From: Escherichia phage sortregn
Length of the DNA stretch: 38,200 bases
Reading direction: 5' to 3' (one strand)
Sequence record: MN850588.1
The notes beneath the pieces were generated by a model. The model did not search any database, was not told where the DNA came from, and saw only the letters and a list, made by a program, of their open reading frames with translations. The position numbers and the translations under genes were made by a program. Shown here piece by piece: positions 4,543 through 37,481 of the stretch (its first letter is position 1; each line of letters starts with the position of its first letter).

Positions 4543-4564
4543 ATAGCACTTTTTGTTAAAACAC
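4543..4564 (+). promoter_or_regulatory. conserved promoter-like element copy 1 (ATAGCACTTTTTGTTAAAACAC)
   Basis: 22-mer shared with 6855-6876 (2 mismatches), each about 60-70 bp upstream of a rightward operon start. Confidence 0.35.
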
Positions 4565-6830: not shown

Positions 6831-6850
6831 GGCCCTCCGGGGCCTTTTTT
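6831..6850 (+). terminator. intrinsic terminator
   Basis: GGCCC-TCCG-GGGCC hairpin followed by TTTTTT. Confidence 0.65.
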
Positions 6851-6854
6851 GCGT

Positions 6855-6876
6855 ATAGCACTTTTTGCTAAAGCAC
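6855..6876 (+). promoter_or_regulatory. conserved promoter-like element copy 2 (ATAGCACTTTTTGCTAAAGCAC)
   Basis: See copy 1; both followed by CAATTATC and CACCAAC-like segments. Confidence 0.35.
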
Positions 6877-6927
6877 TTTCAATTATCCTTTGTTATTATT
6901 CTTTCACACCAACACGAGGACGACGAA

Positions 6928-7152
6928 ATGAAACAGACTTTACTCCCGACCAAAACAAACAAGGCTCAACTGGTTAACCCGCTGTTACTGAAACAGGCGC
7001 ACATCCTGATCGAGGTGGCGATGATTCTCCGTAATCGCCTGAAAATGTACGCCGCCGGGCCAGCAGCTACAGCAGCTTTAAAGCGCGAGGCTCGCCAGGC
7101 AGAGGACGACGCTCGCGAACTGATCCGAGGCGCTTATGGTTATCGCCCGTAA
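6928..7152 (+). CDS. hypothetical protein
   Basis: ORF 6865..7152 with start moved to ATG 6928 preceded by GAGGA. Confidence 0.45.
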   Translation: MKQTLLPTKTNKAQLVNPLLLKQAHILIEVAMILRNRLKMYAAGPAATAALKREARQAEDDARELIRGAYGYRP

Positions 7153-7411
7153 GACTTCGCGCCGGGAGTTATGGGAGGCGGCGCAAGCCGCCGAACTGGA
7201 CGGCATGATCAGCGCAGTCTCCCGCGTGTTCGGCAAGGAGGCGATCGCCGACATATCGATCGAGACGCCGGACGGCGAGATGTACCTGAACAACCCGGAC
7301 CCGCACCACTGGCGCGTCGTGCCTGGGACTAAAGGCGGAAAGAACGCTCTCAAAGACGCGATCGCCGACACCAAAAACCGGAAGCACCTCAAAGGGGGAT
7401 CTCGTGGGTAA
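7136..7411 (+). CDS. hypothetical protein
   Basis: 91 aa ORF overlapping neighbours. Confidence 0.4.
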   Translation: MVIARKTSRRELWEAAQAAELDGMISAVSRVFGKEAIADISIETPDGEMYLNNPDPHHWRVVPGTKGGKNALKDAIADTKNRKHLKGGSRG

Positions 7412-7796
7412 AGTAACAGCGAAGATTATCGGATGGACTGACGAGCAGGACGCGGAACTGGTTCGCCTGGCTGGAACCATGCCAGCGCCGGACCTGGCGA
7501 AGAAGATAAAACGCAACTTCCGCCAGATGCAGGTCCAGGCGTCGAAGCTGGGGATCTCCCTGGCGTACCGCAGGACGTACACGCAATGGACAGCGGAGGA
7601 GGACCGGAAGCTGGTCCGCTTCTGGGAGGATAAACTGACCCCGGAGGACGTGGTGGAGATCGCAGAGACTACGGGGATCTATGAAGTGACCCGCGACGAA
7701 CTGACACACGAGCACGTCGCGACCTGGCTCGACAAATCGCGCCCGGCAGTACGCGGACGCCTGGCAAAATTCAAGAAAGAGGGGAAAATAGCATGA
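7404..7796 (+). CDS. putative DNA-binding protein with two W-x-x-E-(E/Q)-D helix motifs (GcrA/Myb-like)
   Basis: GTG start after GGGGG SD; GWTDEQDAELVRLAG and QWTAEEDRKLVRFW resemble GcrA N-terminal / Myb-SANT DNA-binding repeats. Confidence 0.45.
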   Translation: MGKVTAKIIGWTDEQDAELVRLAGTMPAPDLAKKIKRNFRQMQVQASKLGISLAYRRTYTQWTAEEDRKLVRFWEDKLTPEDVVEIAETTGIYEVTRDELTHEHVATWLDKSRPAVRGRLAKFKKEGKIA

Positions 7797-10374: not shown

Positions 10375-10472
10375 TGGAGGGATCCCTTTTAACAAGTGAG
10401 TGAACGCTAAAAGGGTAGCATGTGGAATCAAGGGCCGCAAAGCCCCTTTTCAGATGAAAGGTTAAGTAATTG

Positions 10473-10784
10473 TTATTTGCCGGAAAGAAGGCGCAAGGCG
10501 TCCATAGGAGACTCCGCCCCGGCTAACTGTTTAGCGAAGCCCTCCGCCGCCTGGCGCAGCTTGTCCACGTCCTCGAAGCCGCGATCGCGAGCCGCTTCCG
10601 CTTCGGTGTAGGCCGCTTCCCCGTCCATCGCCTGATCGTCCGGGTGGAACACCAGGTTAAACGACAATTCCGCGCCCTGGATCTCAGTGACCAGGCAGAT
10701 CGCCGGATTGTCGTCCGAGTCCTCGCCTTTGCGGACCAGAACCTGGCGATCGTGTGCTTCAAATAAGTGTGCGAAACGTTCCAT
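10473..10784 (-). CDS. hypothetical acidic protein
   Basis: ORF 10473..10889 with start moved to ATG 10784 after AAGAGG. Confidence 0.45.
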   Translation of the reverse strand: MERFAHLFEAHDRQVLVRKGEDSDDNPAICLVTEIQGAELSFNLVFHPDDQAMDGEAAYTEAEAARDRGFEDVDKLRQAAEGFAKQLAGAESPMDALRLLSGK

Positions 10785-11400: not shown

Positions 11401-11441
11401 CTTCGACTCCTGGGTGGATGGCCCCCGAAGGGGCCGGGTGA

Positions 11442-11693
11442 TTAATAATATTCGTCGGCGCGGATCTTGTTACGATGGATAATGCGACGTGCTTCGAGTT
11501 CGCCGCGTGTGGTGTACTCGTCCACGTACTCCTCGATCTCCGGCTCCTCGCCTGTGAGTTCCGGCGCTTTCCATGAGAGATAACGCTTAACTGTGCCAGT
11601 TTTAACGAACGCCGGGAGCAGGTTTTTAAAGTTACGTGACCAGTGACGCCCGCGCTCTTGATCGCCTTTTACCATGATTGTTAAGTTTGCCAT
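11442..11693 (-). CDS. hypothetical protein
   Basis: 83 aa ORF. Confidence 0.45.
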   Translation of the reverse strand: MANLTIMVKGDQERGRHWSRNFKNLLPAFVKTGTVKRYLSWKAPELTGEEPEIEEYVDEYTTRGELEARRIIHRNKIRADEYY

Positions 11694-14656: not shown

Positions 14657-14911
14657 CCGGGGCGTGTGTTGGTAACGAGTAACACCCCCCCTTATAGGGG
14701 GGGATGTAACGTGTTACCGCAACCCACAAGGCCGAAAACATAGTTTTTTATGTGTACTGTTACCGACAAGCGACCGTAATCAAATCAATCATTTATGTGT
14801 GATTCGGTAACGGGGAAAGTAGCGAATCGGTCGCGGGGAAATCGGGGGGTAAAAATCGGGGGTGACCCCCGACAAAATCCCCGCCAAATAATCATTGATA
14901 AGTGATGCGAA
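14657..14911. promoter_or_regulatory. repeat-rich non-coding region, candidate replication origin/regulatory region
   Basis: 255 bp non-coding after replicative ATPase gene: C7-TTATA-G7 hairpin 14685-14703, six (G/A/T)GTAAC sites, TTATGTGT twice, three AAATCGGGG-like repeats, GGGGG-TGA-CCCCC palindrome. Confidence 0.4.
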
Positions 14912-15554: not shown

Positions 15555-15619
15555 CGCTTGCATGATGTACGCCCCGGCGATATGCTGGGGCCGTTTCCAC
15601 CCACGAGAGAGATCGAACA

Positions 15620-16258
15620 ATGTCAATATTCACTTTCATTAATCGCAAACTGGGCCGTTTCAAGACGTGCCGGACCTGCAAGGATAAGCACCCTTGCGGC
15701 TTCGGGGAATGGCCTTCGATGTTCTTCATGTGCGACAAGTGCCAGAACAAGACGCTGGAGGAGCTATTCGAACCGGGACGCCTTAACCGCCTGACGATGG
15801 TCCACCAGACGGAGGAACAGATGGCAGAGTCCCGCCGCCGTCTGGGGCCGTTGATCGACAGCCTGGTGAGCCAGCAGCGCCAGAGCAAACAAACCGCAGC
15901 CCAGACCCAGGCAGCGAAGGCCGCGCAGTATCGCGACCCGCGATCGGTGGCAATGGCCCGCCAGATGGCGCACGACCCACGCCCGGCGGCTCGTGGTACG
16001 CAGCAGGATCCGATCTCGGACCCGATGCACCTCCTCAACCCGTTAAACCCGCTCTCCCCAGTGTCTCCGCTCAACCCGCTGAACGACTGGGACGACAGCA
16101 GCCACCGCCACCACGTCGCGCCAGCCATGAGCGAGCCGACGGAATGCCACACCACCAGCCACTCCTCCGGCTATGAGTCCAGCAGCAGCGACTACAGCAG
16201 CAGCAGCTACGACAGCGGGAGCGACTCCTCCAGCTACTCGTCCGGGGGCTGTGACTGA
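15620..16258 (+). CDS. zinc-ribbon protein with Pro/Leu repeats and Ser/Tyr/Asp-rich C-terminal tail
   Basis: CRTCKDK...CDKCQNK four-cysteine ribbon; LNPLNPLSPVSPLNPLN; tail SSSSDYSSSSYDSGSDSSSYSS encoded by short AGC repeats. Confidence 0.55.
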   Translation: MSIFTFINRKLGRFKTCRTCKDKHPCGFGEWPSMFFMCDKCQNKTLEELFEPGRLNRLTMVHQTEEQMAESRRRLGPLIDSLVSQQRQSKQTAAQTQAAKAAQYRDPRSVAMARQMAHDPRPAARGTQQDPISDPMHLLNPLNPLSPVSPLNPLNDWDDSSHRHHVAPAMSEPTECHTTSHSSGYESSSSDYSSSSYDSGSDSSSYSSGGCD

Positions 16259-16630: not shown

Positions 16631-17185
16631 ATGGCAAACGAACAGAACCTTAAGAAGGGGAACCGCTTCTCCAAAGAGAACCAGCCGGAGCGACGCGGCA
16701 GGGCGAAGCAGAACCGGACGTTACTCCTCGAAGCACTCCGCAAGGTTCGGATCAAGGAGGCCACCGGGCGCAAGGTCGAGGACATCGATCCAAACACTGG
16801 CGAGGTGAAGGTGAACAGCGAAACGGGCGAGCCGATCATGGTGGACGAGTTCGTGGAGGTCCCGCTCACGGAGGACATGTTCATCCAGCGAGCGATCCAG
16901 ATGGCCCTCGTAGACGGTTCCATGATGCGCGACATCATGAGCCGATTAATCCCCTACACCAAGCCGACCAGCCCGACCTATTGCTTTGAACTGACCGGAT
17001 CCACCCCGTCCGAGCGTATCACCGAGATCGAGGACCTGGTGGCAGCGGGAGAGCTTCCGTTCGACGCGGCGGAGTCTATGGTGAAGATGATCCGCCACGG
17101 CGCGGAAGTGTTCGAAATGTCCGAAATGGTCAAACGACTGGACGCACTGGAGGCCCGACTGAATGGCGAAGCCAAAGACGAATAA
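16631..17185 (+). CDS. terminase small subunit (P22 gp3-like)
   Basis: N-terminal KKGNRF motif as in P22 gp3; GGAGGA SD; upstream of TerL. Confidence 0.55.
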   Translation: MANEQNLKKGNRFSKENQPERRGRAKQNRTLLLEALRKVRIKEATGRKVEDIDPNTGEVKVNSETGEPIMVDEFVEVPLTEDMFIQRAIQMALVDGSMMRDIMSRLIPYTKPTSPTYCFELTGSTPSERITEIEDLVAAGELPFDAAESMVKMIRHGAEVFEMSEMVKRLDALEARLNGEAKDE

Positions 17186-17597
17186 ACTCCCGCCGGACAC
17201 TTACGGCAGACTGGAGGCGCTGGGCCTGAAATGGTTCACCGCCTCCCCTTACCCTTATTTCATCGTGTGCTTTGACCCGCAGGACGAGGAGATGGTGGCG
17301 AAGCTGGGCGAATGCTTCCCGGACTGGAACCGCGAGAAGCCGATCCAGCAAGGCGTCGCCATTGAGTACCACGCCGCCGACGTTAAGCTGGTGTTCGTAG
17401 GCGTCCGCCGGGGCCAATACTGGCGGACGACCATCGTCCACGAGATCGTCCACGTTAAGAACTACATCGGCGACACGCTGGGGATCGAGTGGGACGTGAA
17501 CAACGACGAGCCGGAGGCTTACTTCGTGGGCTGGCTGTTTAACATGATGGAGCAAACCTTCCAGGATCTGGGCTATGGCAAAAAATCGAAAGGATAA
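17163..17597 (+). CDS. hypothetical protein with HExxH motif (possible zincin-like)
   Basis: 144 aa ORF between TerS and TerL; HEIVH followed by acidic EPEAYF. Confidence 0.45.
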   Translation: MAKPKTNKLPPDTYGRLEALGLKWFTASPYPYFIVCFDPQDEEMVAKLGECFPDWNREKPIQQGVAIEYHAADVKLVFVGVRRGQYWRTTIVHEIVHVKNYIGDTLGIEWDVNNDEPEAYFVGWLFNMMEQTFQDLGYGKKSKG

Positions 17598-19214: not shown

Positions 19215-21449
19215 ATGGCACGAGTTAAAAAATCGGTGCAGAACTGGCAGGAATGCGCCCGGAAGAAATTAAGCGCCGCGATCGGGGCGGAGGACACCAG
19301 CCGCAAGAAGATGATCGAAACGGCGCGATTTGTCCGCATTCCTGGCGCTCAGTGGGAAGGCTCCACGAACTCCGGCTTTGCGATGGATGATGAACGTTTC
19401 CAGAAATACCCGCGATTTGAGCTAAACAAGGTCGGGCGCGAGGTGGATCGCATCATTTCAGACTACCGCCTGAACCGCGTAAACGTCACGTTCCGCCCGA
19501 AGGACACCCAGGCCTCCGAAGAACTGGCGGACAAGCTGAACGGCAAGTTTCGCGCAGACTTCAACGAGTCGAACGGCTCCGAAGCCGTGGACAACACCTA
19601 CGAGGACGGCGTGACGGGCGGAATGGGCGCTTTCCGCATGGACACCGAACTGGAGGACGAGTTCGACCCGGACAACGAACAGCGTCACATTGTTTTTTAC
19701 CCGATCTATGATCCGGCCTCGTGCCTGTTTATCGATCAGGACTCCAAGATGTACGATCGCAGTGATGCTATGTGGATGGCGGAGCTATTCAGCATGACCC
19801 CGGACAAGTACGAGGAGCGCTATCCCGACGCCCTCGCCCCGGAGGACCTGATGGCGATCGATACCGGGAAACAATTCGACTGGGCCACGAAGGACGCGAT
19901 CTATCTGGCGCGTTACTACGAGGTGAAGATCGAGGACACCACCGTGATCTCCTACAAGAACCCGTTAACCGGGGAGGTGGAGGTCTACGACGAGGACGAG
20001 ATCGAGCAGATCGAGGACGAACTGGAGGCCGGAGGCTGGGAACGCCAGAAGGATCGCAAGGTCAAGCGCCGCAAGGTCTATTGCGGACTTATGACTGGTG
20101 GCGAATGGCTGGAGGAGCCGAAGCTGATCCCGTTCGAGTGGATCCCGATCTTCGTGTTCAACGCCCGCCGCTCGTTCATCGACAACATGGAACGCGTAAG
20201 CGGTCACGCGACCCAGGCCCTCGACGCGCAACGTCTGGAAAACCTGATCGTGTCCATGATGGCGGACCAGGCCGCGCAGTCTGGCGGCGATAACATCCCG
20301 ATCATGGACATTGATATGATTCCCGGAGCGCTGGCTGACGCCTGGGGGGAACGTAACACGAAGCGCCCGGCATACTTGCCCGCTAAATCGCTCCGTAACG
20401 CCGCTGGTGAGGTTGTGCAGCAAGCCGGGCCACTGGGTTACACGCCATCGACGCCGCTCTCTCCGGCGCTGGCAGCGGTCCTACAGTACACCGGGAGCAC
20501 TATCCAGCAGATCGTCGGCTCGTCCCAGGTGGAGGCGTTACCGTCGAACCTGGCGACCGAAACCGTGGAGGCCATTTTCGCCCGTATGGACGGACAGGGC
20601 GCTCTCTACATGGACAACCTGGGGAAAACGCTCCGCCACTGTGGGCGCGTGTACCTCAGCGCGGCCCGCAAGGTCTACGGCTCGGAGAATTACGTCCGCG
20701 TGAAGAACGAGGACGGGACCGACGATCTCGTGTTAATGACCGGGAAAGTGATCGATCGTGACACGGACGAGGCGATCGCGATTAACGACCTCAAGCGCGG
20801 GAAATATGAGGTCGAGGCCGACGTGGGCGAGTCCTCCCAGACGAAGCGCGTCGCAACCGTTCGCAGCCTGACGAATCTCCTCCAGTCCATGCAGCCTGGC
20901 GACCCGAACGCCGCCGTAGTGATGGGCCTGATCATCATGAACATGGACGGCGAAGGCTTGCAGGACTTCAAGGAATACAGCCGCCGCCAGCTTCTCCTGA
21001 ATGGCATCGTGAAGCCGCAGACGGACGAGGAGAAAGCGATGGTAGCCGAGGCCCAGCAAGCCGCCCAGCAGCAGCCGGACGCGCAGATGGTAGCCGCTCA
21101 GGGCGTAGCGCAGCAGGGACAGGCCGCAGTGATGGAGCAGGAGAACAAGCGTTTAGAACTGACGCTCAAGGCGCAGAGCACCGCGTCCGACGGTCAACTG
21201 AAAAACGCGCAGACGGTCAAGACGATGGCAGAGGCGGCGGCAATCCCGCAGGATCAGCTATTGAGCGCGATCGCCGTTCTCCAGAAGTACGTCTCCCAGC
21301 AGAACAGCGACGCCCACAAACAGGCGGATCTGTTCCTCAAGGCTCAGGGACAGGGCCACACCCAGCGCGAGGACCAGATGGCCCGCGAGATGGCAGAGCG
21401 CCAGGCATCGCAGAGCGCCGATCGTCAACTGGGATTAGCTGGCCTGTAA
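19215..21449 (+). CDS. portal protein (P22 gp1-like, Q/A-rich helical C-terminus)
   Basis: 744 aa, follows TerL, GGAGAA SD, intrinsic terminator after stop. Confidence 0.8.
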   Translation: MARVKKSVQNWQECARKKLSAAIGAEDTSRKKMIETARFVRIPGAQWEGSTNSGFAMDDERFQKYPRFELNKVGREVDRIISDYRLNRVNVTFRPKDTQASEELADKLNGKFRADFNESNGSEAVDNTYEDGVTGGMGAFRMDTELEDEFDPDNEQRHIVFYPIYDPASCLFIDQDSKMYDRSDAMWMAELFSMTPDKYEERYPDALAPEDLMAIDTGKQFDWATKDAIYLARYYEVKIEDTTVISYKNPLTGEVEVYDEDEIEQIEDELEAGGWERQKDRKVKRRKVYCGLMTGGEWLEEPKLIPFEWIPIFVFNARRSFIDNMERVSGHATQALDAQRLENLIVSMMADQAAQSGGDNIPIMDIDMIPGALADAWGERNTKRPAYLPAKSLRNAAGEVVQQAGPLGYTPSTPLSPALAAVLQYTGSTIQQIVGSSQVEALPSNLATETVEAIFARMDGQGALYMDNLGKTLRHCGRVYLSAARKVYGSENYVRVKNEDGTDDLVLMTGKVIDRDTDEAIAINDLKRGKYEVEADVGESSQTKRVATVRSLTNLLQSMQPGDPNAAVVMGLIIMNMDGEGLQDFKEYSRRQLLLNGIVKPQTDEEKAMVAEAQQAAQQQPDAQMVAAQGVAQQGQAAVMEQENKRLELTLKAQSTASDGQLKNAQTVKTMAEAAAIPQDQLLSAIAVLQKYVSQQNSDAHKQADLFLKAQGQGHTQREDQMAREMAERQASQSADRQLGLAGL

Positions 21450-21479
21450 CTGGTCGGACCGCACGAAAAGCTAAAGACA

Positions 21480-21505
21480 AGCCCGCTTCGGCGGGCTATT
21501 CTTTG
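21480..21505 (+). terminator. intrinsic terminator after portal gene
   Basis: AGCCCGC-TTCG-GCGGGCT hairpin followed by ATTCTTTG. Confidence 0.6.
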
Positions 21506-21508
21506 CCT

Positions 21509-21519
21509 CGACACATCAC
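21509..21519 (+). repeat. CGACACATCAC element copy 1 (after portal terminator)
   Basis: 11-mer identical to 25041-25051; 25 nt upstream of ATG 21544. Confidence 0.7.
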
Positions 21520-21543
21520 TAAACCATTACAAAGGAGTTTTGA

Positions 21544-21765
21544 ATGGCCCGATCACTGATAGCAGTCAAAGACGCCGCCGGGGAAAAGTACCTCCTCCCG
21601 GTCCGTAACATCGTGAGCGTGACGGAGTTCCCGGACAACGAGCGCCGCGTGGAGGTCAAGGTCCGCGAGCCGATCAATGGCCCAGACGGGCGGATCTGTG
21701 GGTACGAGTTAAACCTGTATTACTCGCCAATGTCGATCGCACAATTCGAAGGGGCTTACGCGTGA
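21544..21765 (+). CDS. hypothetical protein
   Basis: 73 aa ORF, AAGGAG SD, first of four coupled small genes. Confidence 0.45.
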   Translation: MARSLIAVKDAAGEKYLLPVRNIVSVTEFPDNERRVEVKVREPINGPDGRICGYELNLYYSPMSIAQFEGAYA

Positions 21766-21932
21766 AACGCTACAAATGCACCGTAGGCGACAAGCGCGGG
21801 GCGTTCGGCGACTGTATGGAGCAGGACAAGGACGGGGACTGGATGCGCGTCTCCGACCATAATCGACACATTCAGGCACTGGAGCGCCAGATCGCGGCGC
21901 TAAAGGCCAAAACCAGAGAGACGAAACAATGA
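21762..21932 (+). CDS. possible small protein (56 aa, GTG start)
   Basis: Own reading; overlaps both neighbours (GTGA and ATGA); below ORF-track cutoff. Confidence 0.3.
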   Translation: MKRYKCTVGDKRGAFGDCMEQDKDGDWMRVSDHNRHIQALERQIAALKAKTRETKQ

Positions 21933-22297
21933 AAACGACCTACAACCTCGACCAGATGGCCCTCTTTTCTGCGATCGCCGCAGCGGTAGGAAAACAGGCG
22001 CCAGGGCTTCCGGCGGATAACCGCGCTAACGTGGTGATCGAGGCCGCAAACATGATCGTAGCGGCCTATGCGCTGACCGATGCCGAATACATGGCGAAGA
22101 AGGCAGAAGCGCCGATCGCCGTTGACCTCCAGCCGACGGCGGAACAGGTGGAGGCCGGGATCGCCTCGCTGTGGGACACCATCCCCGGCGCGATGGATCA
22201 GCTATGCCAGGACGTGGCAGAGGAGGAGCAGGGCGATCTATTCTCCGACGCTGTTACTTTCGTGTGGCAAGCCATGATCGGGAAGCGTCCACAATGA
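21929..22297 (+). CDS. hypothetical protein
   Basis: 122 aa ORF, ATGA coupling. Confidence 0.45.
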   Translation: MKTTYNLDQMALFSAIAAAVGKQAPGLPADNRANVVIEAANMIVAAYALTDAEYMAKKAEAPIAVDLQPTAEQVEAGIASLWDTIPGAMDQLCQDVAEEEQGDLFSDAVTFVWQAMIGKRPQ

Positions 22298-22563
22298 GCG
22301 TAATCCATCACTACCTCGCCTTTCCGGGCGGGGGAGTGTCCGCCCTCCGCAAGCTGGGCCAGACGCTCGAAGAACGCCACGACCTCGACGGCATACTGGA
22401 GGGGCCGGAGGAGGGGGAGCGCTGGCGCATCGTAGCCAGTGAGATGATCCACGCCGCAGAAGGGCCAGACGTCGCGCTCTACTACGTGATCCCCGCTTCG
22501 GTTCCACCGCACCACGAGGCGCTCTATCTCTCGCAAGCCCTCGTAAAAGCCGCCACGAAATAA
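22294..22563 (+). CDS. hypothetical protein
   Basis: Internal ATG 22294 of ORF 22171..22563 overlapping previous stop; 89 aa. Confidence 0.4.
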   Translation: MSVIHHYLAFPGGGVSALRKLGQTLEERHDLDGILEGPEEGERWRIVASEMIHAAEGPDVALYYVIPASVPPHHEALYLSQALVKAATK

Positions 22564-22572
22564 CCCGCCACC

Positions 22573-22583
22573 CTGGGGGGATC
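22573..22583 (+). repeat. CTGGGGGGATC 11-mer copy (intergenic, part of hairpin)
   Basis: Exact match 10 nt after stop of the 89-aa gene. Confidence 0.8.
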
Positions 22584-22612
22584 GTTAATCGCGATCTCCC
22601 CTATTTGCATTT
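22575..22612 (+). terminator. hairpin with T-rich tail (possible terminator/attenuator)
   Basis: GGGGGGATCG-TTAATCG-CGATCTCCCC 10-bp stem with one G-T pair, followed by TATTTGCATTTT. Confidence 0.4.
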
Positions 22613-22690
22613 TCCCGCCGCCCTCGCTTAAACTTACTCCCGCCACCGATGGGCGAATACATCGCGTATGCAACAAAACGAGGATCTACG

Positions 22691-23689
22691 ATGAAATTCC
22701 GTGAAATGTTTTTGAAATATTATGCACCGTACACCGAGAACGACGGCGGCGCGGCGGCATATGAAGCTATGCAGAACGGCAACTCTCAGGAAGCCACGGA
22801 CGACACCCCGGACACTGACCCGAACGAGCAGGACCACGACAACGACAACGACGTGGACACCGATCTGGACGAGCAGGATCTGGACGAGAACGGCAAGCCG
22901 AAGGCGAAGGAAGGCGGCGAGAACGCGGAAACCGAGGACGAGGAGGAGGAGTTCCTGTTCGACGGTCAACCAGTTACCGCAGCGCCTACGGACGAAGATG
23001 ATCAGGAAGGCGACAGCGACCTGGTGAAACATCTCCGCGCCCAACTCCGCGAGCAGAAAAAACAATTCAAGACCTCCACCCAGGCGGCGCAGGAGCGCAA
23101 AGAGATTCCCGCAGATATGCCCCGCAAGCCAGAGATGGGCGACGAGGGGATCGACTGGGACCCGGAGAAGTACGCCGAAGCGCTGGACAAGTGGACCGAG
23201 GACAAGGCCGCTTATCAGCAGCGCGAGCAGGAGATGGCAGCGAAGCGCGAAGCGTTCGGGAAGAAATTCTCCGAAGGCCAGCAGCGCTACCAGACCGAAC
23301 GCGCTAAGGCGATCAAGAAGTATGCGGGCTTTGAGAAGGCCGAAGCCGCGATCGCAGAACTGCCGGAGCCGTTACAGGCGGGCCTGATGATCAACAGTAA
23401 GAACCCGGCGGCGCTGGTCATGGTACTGGGACGTAACGCTGATTTGCGGAAGCAAGTCGAGGATGCCTATAATAGCGACCATATCGCGCTGGGCTACCTA
23501 ATCCGCGATATTGAGGCCCGCGCAGGTTCCAAGCCGAAGGCGAAACAGAATCTCAATTCTACGCCAGAAGTTAAGGGCCAGAACGGAGTCGCAAACGTCG
23601 GACAACTGGAAGCACTTCGCAAACGAGCGGAAGCGACCGGGGATTATACGGAATACTTCGCAGCCAAGAACAAACGGGCTGAAAAGTAA
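22691..23689 (+). CDS. scaffolding protein (P22 gp8-like)
   Basis: ORF 22649..23689 with start moved to ATG 22691 after ACGAGGA; highly acidic N-terminus, C-terminal helices resemble P22 gp8 coat-binding region; precedes coat gene. Confidence 0.7.
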   Translation: MKFREMFLKYYAPYTENDGGAAAYEAMQNGNSQEATDDTPDTDPNEQDHDNDNDVDTDLDEQDLDENGKPKAKEGGENAETEDEEEEFLFDGQPVTAAPTDEDDQEGDSDLVKHLRAQLREQKKQFKTSTQAAQERKEIPADMPRKPEMGDEGIDWDPEKYAEALDKWTEDKAAYQQREQEMAAKREAFGKKFSEGQQRYQTERAKAIKKYAGFEKAEAAIAELPEPLQAGLMINSKNPAALVMVLGRNADLRKQVEDAYNSDHIALGYLIRDIEARAGSKPKAKQNLNSTPEVKGQNGVANVGQLEALRKRAEATGDYTEYFAAKNKRAEK

Positions 23690-23719
23690 AACTAACACTC
23701 TATCGGTGGAGATGGATAA

Positions 23720-24976
23720 ATGGCTAACCAGTTAGCGAAGGATCTCGAAATTGCATTCGAGAATTATGTGGCAGGCTTTGACGCGTCTTGCGTAGTATCG
23801 CAGAACGCAGCCAAATTCCGCCCGGATGATACCGCGATGCAACGCGCCGGGGACGTGATCTATCGTCCGCAGCACTACCACGCGGATATTTTGGAAGGTC
23901 TGGATCTGACTGGCAAGGCCGGGACCGATATCGTCCAGCGCCTGGTCCCGTCGGCGTTCAAAGAACCTCAGAACGTGCTCTATAAGCTGGACGCTCGCGA
24001 AATGCGCGACCCAGAGCACAAGAAAGAAATGGGCCGAGCAGCGGGCCAACGTATCGCAGCGAAGATCGACTCCGATCTGATCAACGCCGCAGCACGTTAC
24101 GCGACGCACGTCGTCCCGGTAGGCACTAACACGACCGGAACCCTGGGCCGCGACCTGTGGAACGCAGCGGCGGGCGTGGATGCCGAAATGACCGCTATCG
24201 GGATCCCGGTAGGCGTGAACCGTCGTTCCTTCTGGAACCCCTTCTCCTACAAAGACCTTGCGGGCGAACTGGGCGGACGCCAGTACGTCGCGGGCGTGAC
24301 CCTCTCCGCATACGAGAAGGCGCAGATCCCGGATGTGGCGAGCTTCGACTCCTACAAGACGGACATCTCTCCGCGTCTGGGCGCTGGCCCGACTGGAGCG
24401 ATCACCCTGACCGCAGCCCCGGCGCACAAAGTCCAGTCTAAGAACGCGAACGACATCCCGGTGGATAACCGCGAAGGCGTGATCGATGTTTCTGCTGGTC
24501 ACGGTCTGAAGGCTGGCGACGCGTTCACTATCGCGGGCGTTCACTCCGTCCACATGATCAGCAAGGACACGACTGATCAGCTTCAAGTGTTCCGTGTGCT
24601 GGCAGTGTCCGACAACAACGTAACGATCACCCCGCAGATCCTCCCGCCGGATAACGCGGATCTGCCGTCTCGTCCTTACTCCAACGTGGACGCGAACGCA
24701 GCCTCCGGCGCTGAACTGACCGTTATCAACAAGAACGCGGCGAACGCTAACTTGCTGTGGGCGGACGGCTCCGTGGAGCTTATGCTGGGTAATCTGGCGT
24801 TCCCGACTGGTCAAGGCCCGCAGGTTATGCGCGCTACCGCGAAGAACGGCGCGACGCTGATCATGTCCTACAGCTTCGACCACATCGCGGGCGTCACCAC
24901 TTGCCGCTTTACCACGCTTTACGGCGTTTCCGTCCTCGTGCCGGAATATGTCGGCCTGGTACTGCCGAACCAGTAA
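23720..24976 (+). CDS. major capsid (coat) protein, P22 gp5-like
   Basis: 418 aa; several collinear matches to P22 coat protein (MQRAGDVIYRP, LLWADGSVELM, C-terminal YGVSVLVPEYVGLVLP); strong terminator after stop. Confidence 0.85.
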   Translation: MANQLAKDLEIAFENYVAGFDASCVVSQNAAKFRPDDTAMQRAGDVIYRPQHYHADILEGLDLTGKAGTDIVQRLVPSAFKEPQNVLYKLDAREMRDPEHKKEMGRAAGQRIAAKIDSDLINAAARYATHVVPVGTNTTGTLGRDLWNAAAGVDAEMTAIGIPVGVNRRSFWNPFSYKDLAGELGGRQYVAGVTLSAYEKAQIPDVASFDSYKTDISPRLGAGPTGAITLTAAPAHKVQSKNANDIPVDNREGVIDVSAGHGLKAGDAFTIAGVHSVHMISKDTTDQLQVFRVLAVSDNNVTITPQILPPDNADLPSRPYSNVDANAASGAELTVINKNAANANLLWADGSVELMLGNLAFPTGQGPQVMRATAKNGATLIMSYSFDHIAGVTTCRFTTLYGVSVLVPEYVGLVLPNQ

Positions 24977-24996
24977 GACGCGACGCGCAGCACAAA

Positions 24997-25022
24997 GGGG
25001 AGCCATTGGCTCCTCTTTTTTT
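24997..25022 (+). terminator. strong intrinsic terminator after coat gene
   Basis: GGAGCC-ATTG-GCTCC hairpin followed by T-rich run. Confidence 0.75.
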
Positions 25023-25040
25023 ATGGCTTATACTGTTCCC

Positions 25041-25051
25041 CGACACATCAC
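25041..25051 (+). repeat. CGACACATCAC element copy 2 (after coat terminator)
   Basis: 11-mer identical to 21509-21519; 20 nt upstream of ATG 25071. Confidence 0.7.
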
Positions 25052-25070
25052 CCTATCAAGAGGATCTACC

Positions 25071-25589
25071 ATGTCACGCAATAAGACCGCGATCGCCGTA
25101 GCTATGACCATGATTTACACCCGCCCCGCTATCATCGCCGGGGAAAATATCAAAGGTCTGGAAGTCCTGACCCGCGACCACACGGACGGCCCCTACGCCC
25201 GCGCCTCGTTCCCGGATGAAGAAGCCGCCGAGCGTCTGGAGTCTGGCTTCTGGGTGGATCATCCGGTCAAACTCTCCACGCTGGACAAGGCGATCGCCGA
25301 AGCCGCTCAGAAGGAAGCGGAGCAGGACAAAAAGGACGCCGACAACCAGAAAGCCGAGCAGGTGAAGAAGGAGCAGGACGAGAAGGTGGAAGATAAGGCC
25401 CCAGAATCGACCGCTACGGCCTCCGAGCAGAAAGACGACCCGAAGGCCACCGAAGCGGAAAAAGCCGCAGAGAGCGGCGCAGAGGCTCAGGAATCCACCC
25501 AGGAAGCGAAGGCCGACGAATCCAAGCCGAAAGACGGCGAGAAGGTAGACGGCGCGAAAGTTCCGACTGATAAGAAGGCGAAGAAATAA
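25071..25589 (+). CDS. hypothetical protein with Lys/Glu/Ala/Asp-rich disordered tail
   Basis: Internal ATG 25071 of ORF 24948..25589 after AAGAGGA; roughly 75 aa ordered N-terminus then charged low-complexity tail. Confidence 0.5.
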   Translation: MSRNKTAIAVAMTMIYTRPAIIAGENIKGLEVLTRDHTDGPYARASFPDEEAAERLESGFWVDHPVKLSTLDKAIAEAAQKEAEQDKKDADNQKAEQVKKEQDEKVEDKAPESTATASEQKDDPKATEAEKAAESGAEAQESTQEAKADESKPKDGEKVDGAKVPTDKKAKK

Positions 25590-35979: not shown

Positions 35980-36177
35980 TTAGCGCGGCAGGTCGAGCCG
36001 AGCCTGTAAAACGCCCGCGTAAGCCTTCATCACGTCCAACTGTACGACGAGGAGACGCTGTTCCGTAGGGTTAACTTTCGCGAACCCCGGCGAGTTAAAA
36101 ATGAATTGCGACAGTGCCGTGATCTTGCCTTCGAGATCGGCCTTTTCGATGCGGACGCGTTCTAAAAAGTCAGTCAT
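35980..36177 (-). CDS. hypothetical protein, downstream partner of HTH gene
   Basis: ORF 35980..36195 (TTG) with start moved to ATG 36177 after AGGAG; 8-nt overlap with HTH gene. Confidence 0.4.
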   Translation of the reverse strand: MTDFLERVRIEKADLEGKITALSQFIFNSPGFAKVNPTEQRLLVVQLDVMKAYAGVLQARLDLPR

Positions 36178-36388
36178 GGTTAACTCCTGTTTCAATCAGA
36201 TCCGCGATCGAGACGTCGAGCGCCTTCGCGATGCGGCATAGGTTAGTAACAGATGGCAATTCATGCCCGTTTTCGTAGCGGCTCAACTGATGCGGGATCA
36301 TGCCGATTCGCTCCGCTAATTCTTTTTGCTGGATGCCTTTCGCTTCGCGGACTTGCTTCACGAGGCAAACGGCTTTTAATTCCGCCAT
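36170..36388 (-). CDS. XRE/Cro-family helix-turn-helix transcriptional regulator
   Basis: ORF 36170..36403 with start moved to ATG 36388 after AAGGAG; QQKELAERIGMIPHQLSRYENG HTH signature. Confidence 0.7.
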   Translation of the reverse strand: MAELKAVCLVKQVREAKGIQQKELAERIGMIPHQLSRYENGHELPSVTNLCRIAKALDVSIADLIETGVNHD

Positions 36389-36451
36389 GTTCGGCTCCTT
36401 CATTGGTTAACGTCTCCGTGATTATTCATTAAAGCGTTATGCAAATCAAAA
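36389..36451 (-). promoter_or_regulatory. candidate sigma70 promoter for HTH cassette
   Basis: On minus strand TTGATT, 17-bp spacer, AATAAT upstream of the HTH gene. Confidence 0.4.
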
Positions 36452-36892
36452 TTATTCTGGGTTAAGCCCTTCACCGTTAACCAGATGCCACTCTTTATGA
36501 TGCTTCTCGCAGAGCCAGCGCACATCTAACGGGCGATCGTAGTCGTCATGATGTCCCACTACCTTCTCCGCCCCGCAGACCTCACACGGCCCCCTGTGGA
36601 GTTCTCCAGTCTTTAGCGCGTAATAGACCATGCTATGAGCGCGGCGCTTCTTTGGATGCCTGGCATGATAGGCTGATTTTGTAGCGTTCGATCGCTCCCG
36701 GCCTTCTCCATGCTGATATTTTTTAGCGTGACAGATGATCCTCTCTTTTCTTTCTGGATCGCTGTGGTAATAACTCCGGTAATTCTTGTTCTTGCACTGG
36801 CGACAGCGTGGATCCCTTCCGTCCTTCCGGCGCTTGTCCTTGTGGAACTCCTCCGGCGGCTTTGATTCGTGGCAAATTGTGCATTGTTTCAT
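36452..36892 (-). CDS. HNH endonuclease
   Basis: 146 aa; CEVCGAEKVVGHHDDYDRPLDVRWLCEKHH HNH motif with flanking cysteines. Confidence 0.75.
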   Translation of the reverse strand: MKQCTICHESKPPEEFHKDKRRKDGRDPRCRQCKNKNYRSYYHSDPERKERIICHAKKYQHGEGRERSNATKSAYHARHPKKRRAHSMVYYALKTGELHRGPCEVCGAEKVVGHHDDYDRPLDVRWLCEKHHKEWHLVNGEGLNPE

Positions 36893-36935
36893 CTCGTCGT
36901 CTCCTGGGAGGATCGGCCCCGAAGGGCCTCACCCG

Positions 36936-37481
36936 TTAAAACGGAATATCATCGTCGAAATCTTGAGGCGGCTCGTTAGACGCTCCAGAAGCGCCACCAC
37001 GAGGCGCAGACCCAGACCCGCTACCCTTGCCAGGATTTTGCGAGTTCGTCGCGCCACGGCCCGGAGAATTGCGAGAATTGCCACCGCCGCCGGAGTGGGT
37101 AGGTCCACTCCCCCCAGACTGACCGCCTTCACGCTTCCCGCCTAACATTTGCATCGTGCCGCCGACGTTCACGACGACCTCCGTCGTGTACTTCTCGACG
37201 CCTTGCTGGTCCGTCCATTTGCGCGTCTGGAGCTTGCCTTCGATGTAGACCTGGGACCCCTTGCGGAGATACTCTCCGGCGACCTCCGCCAGCTTGCCCC
37301 ACAAAACGACGCGATGCCATTCCGTGATCTCCTTCATCTCGCCCGTTTGCTTATCGCGCCAGGACTCGGAGGTGGCTACGGTGATATTTGCCACCGCGCC
37401 GCCGTTCGGCATGTATTTTACTTCGGGATCCTGGCCCAGATTGCCGACCAGAATCACCTTATTAACGCCGCGTGATGCCAT
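36936..37481 (-). CDS. ssb: single-stranded DNA-binding protein
   Basis: 181 aa; N-terminal OB-fold region near-identical to E. coli SSB as recalled ([21 protein letters not shown]...), Gly-rich linker, acidic tail DFDDDIPF. Confidence 0.9.

Follow-up and report, generated by a model that had tools for sequence, protein, structure and literature searches.

Which function would be served by an identical stretch of 11 nucleotides (nt) that recurs behind two terminators in the late region of a phage genome? The question is raised by Escherichia phage sortregn, a lytic phage whose head and tail module, including the terminase, is of the P22 type; the window, that is, the whole stretch of 38,200 nt that was analyzed, comprises the complete genome of this member of Murrayvirus. 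The 11-mer CGACACATCAC occurs in two exact copies on the plus strand, at 21509-21519 and 25041-25051, and no further exact copy is found on either strand of the window. Each copy lies within a gap of 94 nt, extending from the stop codon of the portal gene to the ATG at 21544 and from the stop codon of the coat gene to the ATG at 25071, respectively, and each is located downstream of a stable hairpin terminator (21480-21497 and 24994-25018). A preliminary description of the sequence had placed the element behind two late-region terminators, just upstream of ribosome-binding sites; the coordinates and the terminators could both be confirmed. With a probability of about 60%, in our estimate, each copy of CGACACATCAC constitutes the start-site-proximal part of a promoter of the host sigma-70 type that is built on an intrinsic terminator. 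Both sites would most likely be composite junctions of a known regulatory layout, at which transcription of the rightward late gene array stops and is then restarted. The components of the two junctions are the following.

21474..21479, plus strand: -35-like hexamer AAGACA of the portal site, read from the sequence; 4/6 matches to the consensus and a 17-nt spacer to the -10 hexamer
21480..21497, plus strand: terminator hairpin of the portal gene, AGCCCGC-TTCG-GCGGGCT, occupying the spacer of the promoter (-20.7 kcal/mol, z -3.9)
21497..21502, plus strand: -10-like hexamer TATTCT, overlapping the terminator U-tract
21509..21519, plus strand: first copy of the 11-mer, opening a G-poor leader; predicted start at G21510/A21511
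21532-21537 and 21544, plus strand: ribosome-binding site AAGGAG and ATG of the first cassette gene
24994..25018, plus strand: coat terminator hairpin with a run of seven T residues (-19.4 kcal/mol, z -3.5)
25006..25011, plus strand: -35-like hexamer TTGGCT within the hairpin loop and 3' arm; TTGGCT-17-TATACT matches at 9/12 positions and was flagged by the promoter scan
25029..25034, plus strand: -10-like hexamer TATACT, apart from the terminator T-run
25041..25051, plus strand: second copy of the 11-mer; predicted start at G25042/A25043
25060-25064, plus strand: ribosome-binding site GAGGA
25071-25589, plus strand: gene of a 172-amino acid protein, equivalent to gp50 of Salmonella phage Lumpael

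At the portal site, the order of elements is AAGACA, the hairpin as spacer, TATTCT, TTGCCT, the 11-mer, a G-free stretch, AAGGAG, and ATG, while at the coat site it is the hairpin, the T7 run, TATACT, GTTCCC, the 11-mer, GAGGA, and ATG. TATTCT (21497-21502) and TATACT (25029-25034) both resemble TATAAT and possess A at the second and T at the sixth position. The matches to the -35 consensus, that is, TTGGCT at a spacing of 17 nt at the coat site and AAGACA at the same spacing at the portal site, are weak. A G+C-rich hairpin followed by a U-rich tract, as is typical of intrinsic terminators, is present at three places in the late region, namely, at these two sites and at the end of the accessory cassette between portal and scaffold gene; the respective tails are TATTCTTT (21497-21504), TTTTTTT, and TATTTGCATTTT.

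The register of the two copies is the unusual feature that they have in common. Each begins at a distance of exactly 6 nt from the preceding TATWCT hexamer, and the segment that extends from this hexamer through the last base of the element agrees between the sites at 19 of 23 positions. An in-register run of at least 11 nt was obtained with P = 0.00115 when the 30 nt downstream of ten promoter-like -10 sites, chosen by hand, were shuffled. From the end of the element it is 12 nt to the ribosome-binding site and 24 nt to the start codon at 21544 of the portal site, and 8 nt and 19 nt, respectively, at the coat site (start codon at 25071). The leaders contain a single G each, in 23 nt and 19 nt, respectively, compared to 30% G genome-wide, and they are unstructured, with fold z values of -0.07 (portal site) and +1.07 (coat site) that are no better than those of shuffled sequences. 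The proposal of a shared promoter or translational leader, made in the preliminary description, is consistent with the position of the element at the predicted +1 of two sigma-70-like promoters, the -10 hexamers of which are invariant in related phages. A processing site, which had been suggested as well, is not supported: processing hairpins or other RNA structures at the element were ruled out, as the leaders fold like shuffled sequences.

Conservation was assessed at ten portal and eight coat sites, taken from Murrayvirus (Lumpael, ST231, IME_EC2, KMB41, sortsyn, and one IMG/VR contig), Sortsnevirus (Sortsne, IME279, sortkaff, and two contigs), the Kosakonia phage Kc237, and the Hungariovirus C130_2. 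The portal -10 block GGGCTATTCTTT is invariant in 10 genomes of four lineages including Hungariovirus, while its flanking bases vary. All seven pairs of the portal hairpin are kept in 10/10 sequences, one C-G pair being replaced in a compensatory manner by G-C, and the -35 position is occupied by TTTACA at the same 17-nt spacing in Sortsnevirus and Kc237. At the coat site, the T-run and GC(T/A)TATACT are invariant in 8/8 aligned genomes, again with variable flanks; the hairpin stems differ between the genera with complementarity being kept, and the -35 hexamer is weaker in Sortsnevirus. TATACT is absent from P22, the prophages of the CUS-3/Sf101 type, and C130_2, in all of which the coat terminator abuts the ribosome-binding site; the coat gap of Murrayvirus and Sortsnevirus possesses approximately 40 extra nt carrying TATACT and the leader.

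The 11-mer itself is identical at the portal site of all six Murrayvirus sequences, whereas the IME279 group carries ACAACATCAC and C130_2 carries ACACTTCAC at this place. As to the coat site, CGA-ACATCAC with a 1-nt deletion is found in ST231 and KMB41, and GGGAAACATCAC in IME_EC2 and sortsyn, where an ACATCAC island is retained in a leader that has otherwise diverged. The full 11-mer is restricted to Murrayvirus, and a pattern scan of IMG/VR detected the combination of -10 hexamer and 11-mer in Murrayvirus genomes only; a shorter pattern of 14 bases gave mostly chance matches, which were filtered by hairpin context. Since ST231 and KMB41 are one C shorter, the exact identity of the coat-site copy rests on a single-base insertion or deletion, and the length of exactly 11 nt appears to be a lineage-specific accident of this 1-nt change. 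The durable part of the 11-mer would be ACATCAC, located 9-10 nt after the -10 hexamer, and its retention in diverged leaders argues for some constraint on this core. The start-site and leader regions of both junctions are presumably constrained in a similar way, and the shared word is taken to reflect this; in addition, it may go back to a short patch of the portal site, a copy of which reached the coat site in the ancestor of Murrayvirus.

Neither a phage RNA polymerase nor a sigma factor nor an antiterminator of the Q/N type was recognizable in the Lumpael annotation and in PHROG scans, and promoters of the host type are therefore to be expected. In the proposed scheme, the hairpins would end or attenuate the transcripts of the portal gene and those of the scaffold and coat genes. 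The RNA polymerase of E. coli would re-initiate 7-9 nt past TATTCT and TATACT, at the G or A residues 21510/21511 and 25042/25043. Because this usual distance between -10 hexamer and start hits the G or A of CGA, the new mRNAs would open with (G)ACACAUCAC, followed by a short, G-poor, and unstructured leader up to a strong ribosome-binding site. As the outcome, the following units would be uncoupled from each other in dosage: the portal gene, the accessory cassette, the scaffold and coat genes, and the genes for head completion and tail. If this scheme holds true, a clade of lytic phages of E. coli and Salmonella that has received little study would run P22-type head and tail genes unlike P22 with its single antiterminated late transcript; a chain of terminator/promoter junctions, served by the host polymerase without modification, would adjust the dosage of the genes for portal, coat, and tail, and the accessory cassette would obtain an expression unit of its own. 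Annotation and engineering of these phages would profit with regard to start codons, insertion sites, and expression signals.

A comparable division of labor is known from phage T7, where the terminator T-phi follows the capsid gene 10 and class III promoters are located downstream. The predicted partial termination past the most abundant structural gene, with re-initiation for genes needed in lower copy, would be common to both phages, whereas T7 relies on its own RNA polymerase and on promoters of 23 bp and no phage polymerase was found in sortregn. A T7-like promoter was ruled out on the same grounds and because of the presence of two copies only; the resemblance of CGAC.CA in the element to the T7 promoter is superficial. 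Antitermination sites such as nut/qut of lambda or put of HK022 were rejected in view of the lacking Q/N homologue, the unstructured leaders, and the lacking Rfam match.

Other promoter-like sites of the genome show related arrangements, which lends some support to the terminator/promoter scheme. Most of them lie on or right after hairpins, and composites of a hairpin and a promoter-like sequence are also present at 6832-6902, 10375-10475 (minus strand), 15555-15619, and 22575-22634. Often, they are likewise CA- or CAC-rich at the start, as is evident from TATTCTTT-CACACCAACAC at 6897 and from TCACCACC and TCACTCAC. The copy of TATTCTTT at 6897 is the second intergenic one and does not form a hairpin tail there.

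Several observations weigh against the terminator/promoter scheme. The fit to the consensus is weak (8-9/12), the portal-site promoter was missed by the promoter scan, and promoter-like matches in the region number 7, compared to 5.3 in shuffled sequences. At the portal site, TATTCTTT doubles as terminator U-tract, and AAAGA upstream can pair with it; the conservation of this site could therefore come from the terminator alone. At the coat site of Sortsnevirus, the 11-mer is replaced by the unrelated CCCGTTAAC..., though TATACT is shared, and the word itself is therefore not essential to the coat promoter. To this, the selection by hand of the sites in the register test has to be added, as well as a literature search, not exhaustive, in which transcript ends for this phage group were not found.

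Part of these points would be accommodated by a scheme without any internal promoter, according to which the late genes are expressed by read-through and the element is a G-free, CA-rich standby or enhancer part of a translational leader. Leaders that are poor in G and unstructured, an element that ends 8-12 nt upstream of strong ribosome-binding sites, promoter matches that are weak and not enriched, and the second role of TATTCTTT as terminator tail are all in line with it. It would, however, not account for TATACT, which is invariant, stands apart from the T-run, and is missing exactly where the terminator abuts the ribosome-binding site; the fixed offset of 6 nt from the hexamer is left unexplained, and an antiterminator allowing read-through was not found. 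This scheme is considered unlikely.

The terminator/promoter reading may also be extended by the assumption that the junctions serve recombination. Promoter-early stem-loop (PeSL) motifs are composite terminator/promoter units of T4-type phages (PMC2839356; PMC4122927), in which a stop codon and a stretch rich in A/T are followed by a sigma-70-like promoter, a stem-loop rich in G+C, and a ribosome-binding site with ATG (PMC2839356). Their stem-loop is located between the -35 and -10 boxes or overlaps a box, the units border variable ORFan genes, and crossovers were mapped either between the -10 box and the ribosome-binding site or ATG, or else within the hairpin's loop portion (PMC2839356). 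Judged by sequence alone, the sortregn junctions resemble this layout, with the portal hairpin filling the 17-nt spacer and the coat hairpin overlapping the -35 hexamer within one intergenic unit. A role as crossover point may be considered for the portal site, which borders a mosaic cassette and at which homology breaks off in the leader and hairpin-tip alleles are distributed incongruently; the gene behind the coat site is conserved. PeSLs, on the other hand, are present in multiple copies with approximately 100 bp conserved, whereas the two sortregn sites share approximately 23 nt and have unrelated hairpins; moreover, PeSLs are early promoters of T4-type myoviruses, while the present sites belong to the late structural region of a lytic podovirus with a P22-like head. 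With the layout in common but a multi-copy family lacking, the junctions would not be classifiable as PeSLs. If the proposed promoters exist, the PeSL idea would reach beyond the T4-type phages, although no new kind of biology would be involved.

A 53-nt block of the portal site, comprising the -35 hexamer, the hairpin, the -10 hexamer, and the larger part of the 11-mer, shows 92-94% identity between sortregn and C130_2, compared to 69% for the portal genes of the two phages and 61% over the last 300 nt of these genes. The hairpin tip has two alleles that cut across the genera: one of them is GCTTCGGC, found in sortregn and C130_2 and represented by GCTCCGGC in Lumpael, and the other is GGCAAGTCC, which the remaining Murrayviruses have in common with Sortsnevirus. 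Homology between sortregn and KMB41 stops approximately 18 nt past the 11-mer, and between C130_2 and the contig L161 it ends at the ribosome-binding site, the first downstream gene being replaced; the right-hand breakpoints of the portal-scaffold cassette are gene junctions and not hairpins. In view of this island of identity, the incongruent tip alleles, and the homology breaks in the leader, the blocks of Murrayvirus, Sortsnevirus, and Hungariovirus might be PeSL-like linkers for swapping cassettes between genera at the portal-scaffold slot, and ACATCAC, at approximately +3 to +10, might be a dedicated cis signal copied from the portal to the coat junction. Such a signal could act in start-site choice, in 5'-end stability, or as target of a late regulator. 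In this extended form the claim appears improbable, on a par with that of the read-through leader.

Two further features were noted in this region of the relatives. In the portal leaders of Sortsnevirus and Kc237 (L009 5995-6025, L016, L142, L008, and L010), a short dyad such as ATCACG-N4-CGTGAT directly follows the -10 hexamer; it could be a 5' stem-loop or a pair of operator half-sites, and it is not present in Murrayvirus. The record OR754315 (L003; Stutzerimonas phage STP9, UNVERIFIED_ORG) is, in the portal-scaffold region, virtually the same as that of Escherichia phage C130_2, and its host assignment looks doubtful.

Could the identity of the two copies be fortuitous? Repeated 11-mers are common in the window (1109 same-strand pairs), and upon shuffling of the 16 intergenic regions (1467 nt), 44 of 300 trials (15%) yielded a pair with 11 or more nt in common; the bare repeat is therefore not beyond chance. 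The expectation of 0.02 that can be calculated for CGACACATCAC is valid only for a word fixed in advance. When up to 2 mismatches are allowed, 10 matches are found versus 10.4 expected, with 0 in the other intergenic regions, so that neither further copies nor a degenerate family emerge above chance. A chance match in CA-rich leaders would be favored by their biased composition and, at the coat site, by the one inserted C that distinguishes sortregn from ST231 and KMB41. It does not agree with the in-register P value of approximately 0.001, which was obtained with composition preserved, with the additional matches in the -10 hexamer and discriminator (19/23), and with the conservation of the ACATCAC core 9-10 nt from the -10 hexamer in several lineages. 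Coincidence is, thus, rated as slightly less probable than the two preceding alternatives.

It is still less probable that the shared word is a recognition site co-regulating two late units, either as a DNA operator over +1 or as an RNA site for a protein or endonuclease. The occurrence of the same sequence at the same place of two late junctions and the core kept in diverged leaders would speak for it, and two candidate regulators that might bind to an operator are encoded in the window, namely, an XRE-type protein (36173-36403) and a D5-like regulator (7404-7796). However, CGACACATCAC is devoid of dyad symmetry, there are two copies only without intergenic near-copies, the word is absent from the coat site of Sortsnevirus, and for an RNA site both structure and an Rfam match are missing (Rfam 15, E <= 1, 21300-25300, either strand). 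The loosely similar CGAATACATCGCG in the scaffold leader might add to this idea as a third copy; yet it was rejected as such, as it represents the 3' arm of a conserved hairpin in another context, far from a -10 hexamer. An antisense or small RNA partner within the genome was ruled out for want of a reverse-strand copy, and an origin from the host or a prophage was ruled out by 0 matches in 5,426 complete E. coli genomes.

The weakest explanation, proposed in the preliminary description and now very improbable, is that the downstream genes were inserted and brought a common promoter or leader cassette with them: the portal-to-scaffold genes are indeed lineage-specific and variable, homology breaks just past the leader in two comparisons, and approximately 19/23 nt are common to both sites, but positional homologues of the coat-site gene exist in phages of the CUS-3/Sf101 type, in C130_2, and transitively in P22, this gene is kept in Sortsnevirus without the 11-mer, the two sites are unrelated in their hairpins and -35 regions with BLAST not linking the gaps, and the portal junction is constant while the genes behind it change, which is the opposite of co-travel. 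For the coat site, the insertion model is largely refuted. One duplicated cassette was rejected for the same differences in hairpins and -35 regions and the lack of BLAST matches between the intergenic regions.

The genes surrounding the two junctions and the remaining signals of the late region are the following.

19215-21449: portal gene
21544..22563, plus strand: four small accessory open reading frames (ORFs), equivalents of Lumpael gp56, gp55, gp54, and gp53; function unassigned, variable cassette
22575..22601, plus strand: third late-region terminator hairpin, closing the accessory cassette (-19.9 kcal/mol, z -3.8; tail TATTTGCATTTT)
22605..22690, plus strand: promoter-like TTGCAT-18-TAAACT and near-invariant scaffold leader, conserved in 9 genomes including C130_2
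22691-23689: scaffold gene
23720-24976: coat gene

That the genes behind both junctions lack a counterpart in P22 had also been claimed in the preliminary description. At the portal site this holds, the four ORFs being absent from P22 and from phages of the CUS-3/Sf101 type. The portal gene abuts the scaffold gene in P22 and in 75 CUS-3/Sf101-type loci, the coat proteins of which are 73-76% identical to that of sortregn, while the interval between them measures 1085-1938 nt in the lytic relatives and has a mosaic gene content. The comparison with relatives lacking the insertion, as had been recommended, thus confirms the absence of the cassette, and the genes between portal and scaffold indeed represent a variable cassette, inserted relative to P22. 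Such an arrangement is reminiscent of the morons described by Hendrix and colleagues, that is, accessory genes that lie between conserved phage genes and possess a promoter and a terminator of their own. Positions 21474-22601 would comply with this, comprising a predicted promoter, four small ORFs, and a terminator between portal and scaffold; the definition of morons, however, refers to temperate phages, and the prophage state often allows their expression, whereas sortregn is lytic and the expression of its cassette is predicted.

At the coat site, the claim does not hold, and the comparison with relatives reveals a homologue instead. In the P22 record (NC_002371), genes 5 and 4 are separated by a stem-loop and orf69, and similar stem-loops are noted for HK97 and lambda. 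The product of orf69 is homologous to that of the ORF of 62-88 amino acids following the coat gene in CUS-3/Sf101-type phages (hhalign, 96.8%), and homology extends from this ORF family to the N-terminal domain of the 172-amino acid protein (95.8%, E 8e-9); direct comparison of orf69 with the latter protein gives a weak match. The post-coat ORF of C130_2 is a further member of the family, as judged by visual comparison of the translated ORF. Murrayvirus shares with P22, HK97, and lambda a hairpin right after the coat gene, and, as in P22, this hairpin is followed by a gene of the orf69 family and a homologue of gene 4; unlike in P22, where the hairpin runs into the ribosome-binding site, approximately 40 extra nt with TATACT are present in Murrayvirus and Sortsnevirus, with the ACATCAC leader in Murrayvirus. 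The gene after the coat site is accordingly not an insertion, and it is this stretch with TATACT and the leader that is extra. An extension of the gp50 coding region, the frame of which is open upstream to an ATG at 24948, was rejected, as the insertions and deletions of the relatives are not multiples of three. The 172-amino acid protein itself consists of a conserved N-terminal domain of approximately 55 amino acids with the shared motif GW.DHP.KL and a low-complexity tail rich in K, E, and D that ends with KAKK. The post-coat ORF family, of unassigned function, adjoins the coat gene in many P22-like phages.

The scaffold leader (22605-22690) includes a hairpin of the form CGATG...CATCG. It is almost invariant across four lineages, with a different loop in C130_2. 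Scaffold synthesis in P22 is autoregulated, and the hairpin of the scaffold leader is a candidate translational operator.

With regard to the genome as a whole, sortregn (MN850588) is tabulated as a Murrayvirus of 38,200 bp with 97.3% similarity to Lumpael (PMC7552041). The Lumpael genome aligns with the window from end to end at 98.5-99.5% identity, being circularly permuted and reverse-complemented. Approximately 3.3 kb of small early genes of Lumpael (L001 1933-5234) are missing from the window, with the junction at approximately 15240, and further differences between the two are found around 15628-15907 and 17175-17437. Homologues of the P22 genes 4, 10, and 26 are present.

Outside the late region, the 13-mer ATAGCACTTTTTG occurs at 4543-4555, in the gap between the primase and Dam genes, and at 6855-6867, in the gap between a methyltransferase gene and the gp29 equivalent; a shared intergenic stretch of 13 nt was reached in 3 of 300 shuffles only. 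In C130_2, TAGCACTTTTTGCTAAAGACA precedes the portal-site hairpin (L002 2992-3015). ATAGCACTTTTTG and TAGCACTTTTTGCTAAAGACA look like an UP-element or a -35-proximal module that is reused at early and late promoters. The region 6832-6930 contains a terminator, two copies of AGCACTTT, TATTAT/TATTCTTT, CACACCAACAC, GAGGA, and an ATG at 6928, which suggests that the equivalent of Lumpael gp29 starts at this ATG and not at the TTG at 6865. The gaps 11401-11444 and 36893-36938, both on the minus strand, have in common the hairpin core CCCTTCGGGG, followed by CC(A/T)CCCAGGAG and the start codon; here the terminator abuts the ribosome-binding site, and promoter-like hexamers are lacking. On the minus strand at 36452-36892, an ORF of 146 amino acids encodes an HNH/endonuclease VII-like protein (PHROG 2340, E 1.7e-39) that is unannotated in the Lumpael record. 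Finally, the 255-nt non-coding gap at 14657-14911 carries the palindrome C7-TTATA-G7 and repeated units similar to GGGG(A/T)AAATCGGGG, and it could be a replication origin or a packaging site.

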